A stretch of 64,000 nucleotides of DNA, taken from NCBI RefSeq assembly GCF_045037415.1, contig NZ_CP173438.1; one strand, given 5' to 3'. This stretch comes from Escherichia coli. Lineage in GTDB: Bacteria; Pseudomonadota; Gammaproteobacteria; Enterobacterales; Enterobacteriaceae. The notes beneath the pieces are model-generated. The model searched no databases. It saw only the letters and a list, made by a program, of their open reading frames with translations, and was not told the DNA's origin. Positions 595-1,516 of this stretch are shown here, one piece after another. Positions within the stretch are counted from its first letter, which is position 1, and each line of letters starts with the position of its first letter. A program made the position numbers and the translations under genes.

Positions 595-1516
595 TTAACG
601 AGATTCATTCAGAGAGTGAATGCCGTTACGTAATATTTCGATGCGATGGTGCACATCAGCCGTCGCATTTATTTCCAGTAGCTTGATGCCAGCAAAATGC
701 AATGTTGACGATTCTGCTACATTAAATAACTCGCGAACATGATCTGTGGTCATCAGGCTTTCTGCGCAGAATGGTGCAAACGGTGCGTGTAAATCCTGCC
801 ATTCGCCGTATGCCCCGTTTAGCGTCGTACCAGAGAACATCAACGCGCCGAGTTTTCCGGCTTGTTTCGCCATTTGGGTGTGGGTCAGCGGCAGCGTTGT
901 ATTGCGCCCTTCAATGGCAGAGCGCGCCCAGTTGATACAGATGCTGATGTCATAATCGGTAATAACTTCCAGCACATTTTCTAAAGGCAAAAAGCCTTTT
1001 CGGGGGGAAGAAGATGTCATGGCGTCGCAGTGTTCCAGCACCAGCTTGCACGGCCAGTCCCAACTGGCGATTTCTTTCAATGAGCGGGCAAAAGCGTCCG
1101 TCGCTTGCATAACATTAGGATTCGTTGCTAACGGTGCAGCCTGGAGCGCCAGTGCGAGCACTTTATTAGCCTGCAATGCGTTGATTTTATTGAACAGGTG
1201 GCGATAGTACGCCACGCAGGCCTGGCGCTGTTCTTCATCACTGGAGGCGAGAACCAAACCCGCTGTTTTCGCTGCGGCGACGCATGGTTTCCATCACTGC
1301 GGTGACGACAAATTTCCAGCTCTCTGGCGTATGACGGAGTAACCATTGATCGCCAAGAGGGTGAAAATTTTCCAGGCAAGGTTGTTCCAGACCCAAAATG
1401 TCTGGAGTCTCAGATAATTGTCGCCAGAAATCCTTCTCTTCCTCTTCACTTCTTTGGTGAAAAGAAGGTGCACAGGGATACGCGCCGATAATATAACCGG
1501 CATTATTCGTTTTCAT
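595..1516 (-). pseudogene. Unidentified gene of about 310 codons interrupted by a frameshift (ORF 1516..1238 of 92 aa with GGAG RBS and ATG; ORF 1257..595 of 220 aa in the +1 frame)
   Basis: Two abutting same-strand ORFs overlapping by 20 nt in different frames. The downstream frame is open back to a TGA lying inside the upstream ORF. A T4 homopolymer at 1266..1269 is a candidate slip point. I do not recognise the product. Confidence 0.5.

Follow-up and report, generated by a model that had tools for sequence, protein, structure and literature searches.

The yiaK-S operon, which is controlled by YiaJ, serves the catabolism of 2,3-diketo-L-gulonate, L-ascorbate and L-xylulose. In genomes of the K-12 type, yiaL is followed after 117 bp by yiaM, with no gene between them. 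In the E. coli DNA analysed here, a stretch of 64,000 nucleotides of contig NZ_CP173438.1 (hereafter, the window), the same two genes lie on either side of a 922-nt sequence that is read in two overlapping frames. The original prediction had described this interval as an unidentified gene, absent from K-12, which was inserted between yiaL and yiaM and broken by a 1-nt indel. Three questions are raised by this locus: what the gene is, whether the break in its reading frame is a genuine mutation, and whether the gene was gained by some strains or lost from others.

Structure of the locus and identity of the gene

The features of the locus are listed below, beginning with the divergent regulatory gene and following the operon downstream.

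3214..4062, plus strand: yiaJ, encoding the IclR-family repressor, divergent
2015..3013, minus strand: yiaK, 3-dehydro-L-gulonate 2-dehydrogenase, first gene of the operon
1539..2003, minus strand: yiaL (DUF386 / YhcH-YjgK-YiaL family), 5' neighbour
1523..1526, minus strand: GGAG ribosome-binding site, 6 nt 5' of the ATG at 1516, as read from the sequence
595..1516, minus strand: disrupted DUF4862-family gene, almost certainly yiaX1, 922 nt (intact allele, 921 nt, 306 aa)
1238..1516, minus strand: 5' ORF of 92 aa, ATG start; native codons 1-88, then SRLQ and TGA at 1240..1238
1252..1253: site of the 1-nt insertion, AA on the plus strand and A in intact alleles, from the alignment with E. coli strain R4
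595..1257, minus strand: 3' ORF of 220 aa in the +1 frame, listed from TTG; native codons 89-306
482..594, minus strand: AT-rich spacer between yiaX1 and yiaM, 113 nt, GC 32-37%
14..481, minus strand: yiaM, TRAP transporter small permease, 3' neighbour; allele of the B2 / E. marmotae type

The coordinates, lengths and +1 offset of the two ORFs, their 20-nt overlap (1238..1257), the GGAG, the ATG and the AT-rich spacer were all present in the sequence as first described. In a pairwise alignment with the intact gene of strain R4 (WP_000856275.1), the sole difference was one inserted base, and the joined frame minus this base is the intact 306-aa protein, which bears out the view of a single gene broken by a 1-nt indel. 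At the lesion, the plus strand reads GAGAACC in the window and GAGACC in the intact gene. On the coding strand, the extra base precedes codon 89 (GGGTTTGGT[T]CTCGCC), where TT takes the place of T between G88 (GGT) and L89 (CTC), inside the invariant G88-L-A-S91 motif. A run of four T at 1266..1269 had been put forward as the slip site; the run exists, but intact alleles have it unchanged, and the alignment with the R4 allele ruled it out as the site of the lesion. The predicted product of the window allele has 88 native residues (strands beta1-beta3) followed by SRLQ, so it would not be a functional enzyme, and we regard the allele as presumably null. The residues E161-H162-C163-D164, N195-W196-R198, D241, H243 and K278 are encoded in the 3' ORF (595..1257), and no convincing Shine-Dalgarno sequence was seen ahead of its TTG.

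The intact allele matched the Pfam family DUF4862 (PF16154) over model positions 1-291 of 291, with an E-value of 3.7e-94. In E. marmotae, Citrobacter, Salmonella, Klebsiella and more distant organisms, each homologue of the joined frame is encoded as one continuous protein of 306-340 aa; none was found as two separate genes matching the two ORFs, nor does K-12 have an annotated gene in this interval. Members of the family have an uninterrupted frame of about 300-340 codons, whereas the window copy is divided into 92 and 220 aa, which marks it as a pseudogene or a disrupted DUF4862 allele. The copy in strain Esc5, which is 100% identical to the window gene, is annotated by RefSeq as a pseudogene, "DUF4862 family protein, frameshifted". 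Both the gene and the lesion are already known, and the description of the protein as unidentified does not hold: RefSeq flags a frameshifted DUF4862 gene, and the name yiaX1 has been in use in Klebsiella since 2008.

The operon yiaKLX1X2PQRS of Klebsiella pneumoniae is reportedly the subject of an article by Campos et al. that appeared in 2008 in J Bacteriol, volume 190, page 6615 (190:6615). The yiaX1 gene of K. pneumoniae resembles the window gene in coming third, behind yiaK and yiaL, at the avtA-ysaA-yiaJ site and in its match to the DUF4862 model, and its product is 74-75% identical in amino acid sequence to the E. coli protein. The two loci differ in the next gene, which encodes the MFS transporter YiaX2 in Klebsiella and belongs to the TRAP transporter genes yiaMNO in the window. 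The placement of the gene behind yiaK-yiaL, in the same orientation and beside the divergent yiaJ, is conserved. Since the Klebsiella arrangement is that of the yiaKLX1X2PQRS operon, we identify the gene at 595..1516 as yiaX1; as judged from sequence and gene order, it is almost certainly the E. coli copy of yiaX1 and the third gene of the yiaK-S operon.

The name itself is taken from the Klebsiella operon yiaKLX1X2PQRS as given in a passage of PMC4324149 that cites Campos 2008, and the same source labels Klebsiella yiaX1 a "chemotaxis-like protein". Some database names also call the Klebsiella orthologue a "chemotaxis protein". We considered a chemotaxis protein as a candidate identity and rejected it, DUF4862 being the only significant Pfam match and the predicted fold being an enzyme-type TIM barrel. 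Because the domain match and the fold point to an enzyme-type barrel, the "chemotaxis" label looks like a legacy mis-annotation. Our literature search returned no paper mentioning DUF4862 and mentions of yiaX1 / yiaX2 only in passing; a search of NCBIfam with the intact protein gave no match, and neither phmmer nor profile searches of the PDB turned up a meaningful one.

Rarity of the frameshifted allele and origin of the extra base

To compare the yiaL-yiaM interval across the species, we used window positions 400..1700 as a megablast query against 5426 complete E. coli genomes. The whole interval was recovered in 1055 of these, and in every one the gene between yiaL and yiaM bears the annotation "DUF4862 family protein"; in the remaining matching genomes the alignment covered no more than a portion of the query's yiaL end. 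The intact 306-aa gene was found in about 1054 of the 5426 genomes, or about a fifth. Strains R4 and Nissle 1917 (WP_000856282.1) both have the intact 921-nt CDS; the R4 gene is identical to that of the window save for the one base, and in Nissle 1917 the flanking genes are as in the window and the region is 99% identical. Carriers of yiaX1 include Nissle 1917, ATCC 11775 and O25b:H4 strains, which we take to represent phylogroup B2. The absence of the gene from K-12, as stated in the original prediction, was confirmed.

The extra base itself is exceedingly rare. An 81-nt query across the lesion matched 1054 genomes, of which Esc5 alone matched perfectly; the other 1053 lack the base. Similarly, a search of about 15 billion proteins found the exact 92-aa product once, on the Esc5 chromosome. 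Over the 64 kb, the window and the Esc5 record are 100% identical except for an IS150 adjoining hokA, which is present only in the window. Three differences separate the window from R4 over the same 64 kb, and comparison with the lineage consensus showed that two of them are private to R4; the extra base is therefore the only private change of the window. In the Esc5 annotation of these 64 kb, which has about 57 CDS, no pseudogene other than the frameshifted yiaX1 is listed.

Other parts of the window yielded two further observations. The IS150, at about 23470..24908 and absent from the otherwise identical Esc5 RefSeq record, is found at the same hokA site in 1166 complete E. coli genomes, R4 and derivatives of K-12 among them; either the Esc5 record is not exactly the window sequence, or the IS150 was lost from or collapsed in that record. 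At about 45119-46487, the window has tandem repeats of about 480 bp that are 96-97% identical, and in the annotations of Esc5 and R4 these are three neighbouring genes for type I toxins of the Ldr family.

Null alleles of yiaX1 have also arisen independently elsewhere in E. coli. Some are cut short after residue 64, 66 or 95, one is frameshifted after E95, and another, at codon 88/89, is shifted into the other frame. Of these alleles, several sit on long contigs, some of megabase size. In addition, an entry in PMC13322237 lists a within-patient deletion of M1-V74 of yiaX in a bloodstream isolate. These findings suggest recurrent loss of yiaX1 function in E. coli, and the repeated independent nulls suggest that the gene is dispensable in some niches.

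Taken as a whole, the explanation that includes a genuine, recent and strain-private pseudogenisation of yiaX1 is probably correct. We favour a genuine mutation because the extra base is the sole private change of the window, the gene is the only pseudogene in the 64 kb, the lesion involves no long homopolymer, and other null alleles are in circulation. An assembly or sequencing error confined to one assembly lineage, with the gene intact in the organism, is the strongest alternative; we consider it unlikely, with an appreciable chance of being true. A lone error would give the same pattern of one exceptional allele among 1054 carrier genomes, with its 92-aa product on a single contig and the rest of the 64 kb following the lineage consensus. 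Strong purifying selection on yiaX1 in other strains also fits an intact gene, and the window and Esc5 may not be independent assemblies. However, the lesion consists of one base becoming two (T to TT), with no GATC or CCWGG (Dam/Dcm) motif nearby, and no other frameshifted CDS is found in the 64 kb. Moreover, the extra base is shared by two versions, the window and the Esc5 record, that are not identical at the IS150, and it affects a gene in which nulls arise repeatedly and which whole lineages lack. These points argue for a genuine mutation over an error.

Ancestry of yiaX1 and the two yia haplotypes

The original prediction had also raised the possibility of a strain-specific accessory gene in a sugar-acid operon. 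The gene does vary between strains and does lie in such an operon; the part of the proposal that fails is its insertion, as E. marmotae, Salmonella, Klebsiella and Citrobacter have it too. The order in E. marmotae and Salmonella is yiaK-yiaL-DUF4862-yiaMNO-lyxK-sgbHUE, and that in Klebsiella and C. koseri is yiaK-yiaL-DUF4862-MFS-lyxK-sgbH-sgbU-sgbE, at the avtA-ysaA-yiaJ site. Pairwise dN/dS values for yiaX1 of 0.07-0.10 show a signature of strong purifying selection.

When the B2-type and K-12-type operons were compared, yiaJ and yiaK were found to be 97.5-99% identical. Identity then falls to 65-75% in the last ~100 nt of yiaL, 51% in the spacer, 70% in yiaM and 77% in yiaN, and recovers within yiaO. 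The 113-nt spacer of the window is 78% identical to that of E. marmotae and, at about 51%, unrelated to the 117-nt spacer of K-12. The B2-type yiaM/N are 90-93% identical to those of E. marmotae, the same level as the flanking genes and amounting to species-level divergence, whereas the K-12-type yiaM/N are only 70-77% identical to both the B2 type and E. marmotae. Since the K-12-type yiaM/N are the outlier, the K-12 haplotype is a replaced block without yiaX1. No remnant of yiaX1 was detected in the 117-bp K-12 spacer by blastn with a word size of 7. Within the 113-nt spacer of the window, promoter-like and terminator-like sites were not above shuffled expectation; a search of window positions 1..3400 against Rfam gave no match at gathering score, and none within the spacer. 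The comparisons of gene order and identity show that yiaX1 is ancestral in the operon and was lost from K-12-type E. coli with the replacement of the segment from the 3' end of yiaL to yiaO.

In favour of horizontal insertion of a strain-specific gene into a K-12-like operon are the lack of yiaX1 in about 80% of the complete E. coli genomes and the AT-rich spacer behind the gene. This explanation is very improbable given the identical position of the gene in E. marmotae, Salmonella, Klebsiella and C. koseri. In addition, yiaX1 has diverged from its E. marmotae counterpart (90% amino acid identity, dS 0.57) to the extent that the flanking genes have, its GC content of 50-53% is the same as that of its neighbours, it is the K-12-type yiaM/N that stand apart, and no mobile-element remnants flank yiaX1 in the window.

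The weakest reading, that two same-strand ORFs with a 20-nt overlap and a downstream frame open for about 14 codons 5' of the native sequence yield an active protein by programmed +1 ribosomal frameshifting or as a functional split gene, has next to no chance of being right and was rejected: the frameshift occurs in only one of the 1054 E. coli carriers, with a single frame in the other 1053 and in all orthologues of other genera, no known +1 slippery or hungry-codon motif is present at GGT-TCT-CGC, no Shine-Dalgarno sequence is seen ahead of the TTG, and the break falls within the invariant G88-L-A-S91 of a single-domain barrel.

Predicted fold, putative active site and possible function

If yiaX1 is ancestral and selected, the question arises as to what its intact product does. 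An alignment of 70 diverse DUF4862 members was used for an AlphaFold2 model and for analysis of conservation. The model is a (beta/alpha)8 barrel with a pLDDT of 95.9, and its best matches in the PDB, as found by Foldseek, are L-rhamnose and xylose isomerases (E 1e-8). The modelling shows intact YiaX1 with the predicted fold of a xylose-isomerase-like (beta/alpha)8 barrel. An early guess, based on an LEHCD segment, that the protein might resemble TIM-barrel sugar isomerases is supported at the level of the fold, and within the family the residues E161-H162-C163-D164 of this segment show little or no variation. At the sequence level the relationship is distant. Identity between YiaX1 and proteins of the xylose-isomerase-like superfamily (xylose and L-rhamnose isomerases, D-tagatose/D-psicose 3-epimerases, UlaE/SgbU, endonuclease IV) is 8-16%; the match to AP_endonuc_2 (PF01261) covers residues 84-164 only and is not significant (E 0.18); and hhalign of the DUF4862 family profile against SgbU gave a 28-column match without significance.

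Residues E44, G88, A90, P128, E161, H162, D164, K173, N195, W196, R198, S228, D241, H243 and K278 are invariant in the 70 members, and all of them are present in the conceptually repaired window sequence. In the model, E44, E161-H162-(C163)-D164, K173, N195-W196-R198, S228, D241, H243 and K278 lie at or near the C-termini of the strands. We compared these positions with the tetrad of the canonical divalent-metal site on strands beta5-beta8 as seen in SgbU, the L-xylulose-5-P 3-epimerase; this tetrad consists of E153, D183, H209 and E255 in the motifs VEIMD, YPDVGN, IHLKD and LIEMW. When mapped manually by strand order and motifs, and not by superposition, E153/D183/H209/E255 of SgbU correspond to E161/N195/S228/K278 of YiaX1. 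This mapping suggests that, of the four canonical E-D-H-E metal ligands, YiaX1 retains just the first carboxylate and has other residues at the remaining three positions, so its chemistry may differ from that of the classical isomerases and epimerases. The conserved H162, D164, D241 and H243 may form a different site.

Known acid-sugar isomerases offer a functional analogy. OtnI (2-oxo-tetronate isomerase, a Hyi-like barrel) and KduI are enzymes of this kind, and KduI has a cupin fold. Both act in keto sugar-acid pathways together with kinases, SDRs and aldolases, as are found around DUF4862 genes; the likeness is one of function only, and the cupin fold of KduI differs from the barrel of YiaX1. 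In Streptomyces and Arthrobacter, the neighbours of DUF4862 genes encode IclR regulators, an SDR, enolase-superfamily dehydratases and DHDPS-like proteins, as well as PfkB kinases, a KDPG aldolase and ABC sugar transporters. Another homologue, of 60% identity, is likewise preceded by a yiaL-like gene. However, the contexts of distant homologues are heterogeneous, some being sugar-acid clusters and others having housekeeping or unrelated neighbours, and as a functional clue they are only partly informative. One 36%-identical member was observed inside a cluster resembling those for nonulosonic-acid (NeuB / CMP-sugar) biosynthesis, with a radical SAM enzyme.

We infer that the most probable activity of intact YiaX1 is the isomerisation or epimerisation of a keto sugar acid via an enediol-type step, with E161 as the putative catalytic carboxylate. 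By analogy with OtnI/Hyi and KduI, a candidate reaction would be the conversion of a 2-keto to a 3-keto aldonate, which would feed the steps of YiaK and LyxK. As a more general and rather doubtful proposal, DUF4862 would be an enzyme family within the xylose-isomerase-like barrels that has a remodelled site and catalyses a step in keto-aldonate catabolism. According to the manual mapping, the putative site would retain E161, have K278 in place of the last Glu, and include a new cluster of H162, D164, D241 and H243; the step might be, for example, the conversion of 2-keto-L-gulonate or another diketo or keto acid to 3-keto-L-gulonate.

For the window allele, the frameshift at codon 89 would stop translation at 92 aa, so that the barrel would not extend beyond strands beta1-beta3. 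The message then left untranslated, roughly 640 nt, may also lower the expression of yiaMNO-lyxK-sgbHUE through Rho-dependent polarity.

The lesion of the window is in itself of little weight, being either a single-strain null or an assembly error in an already annotated pseudogene. What interest remains attaches to the biochemistry of the DUF4862 family and to the history of the two yia haplotypes. YiaX1 is an enzyme-like protein without an assigned reaction within the well-studied ascorbate / 2,3-diketogulonate pathway. The yia operon of E. coli exists as two old haplotypes, and the K-12 reference represents the derived one without yiaX1, so pathway descriptions based on K-12 omit a conserved, selected, predicted enzyme. 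If the proposed role of DUF4862 is true, the presence, absence or inactivation of yiaX1 would alter which ascorbate- or plant-derived acid sugars the lineages of E. coli use.
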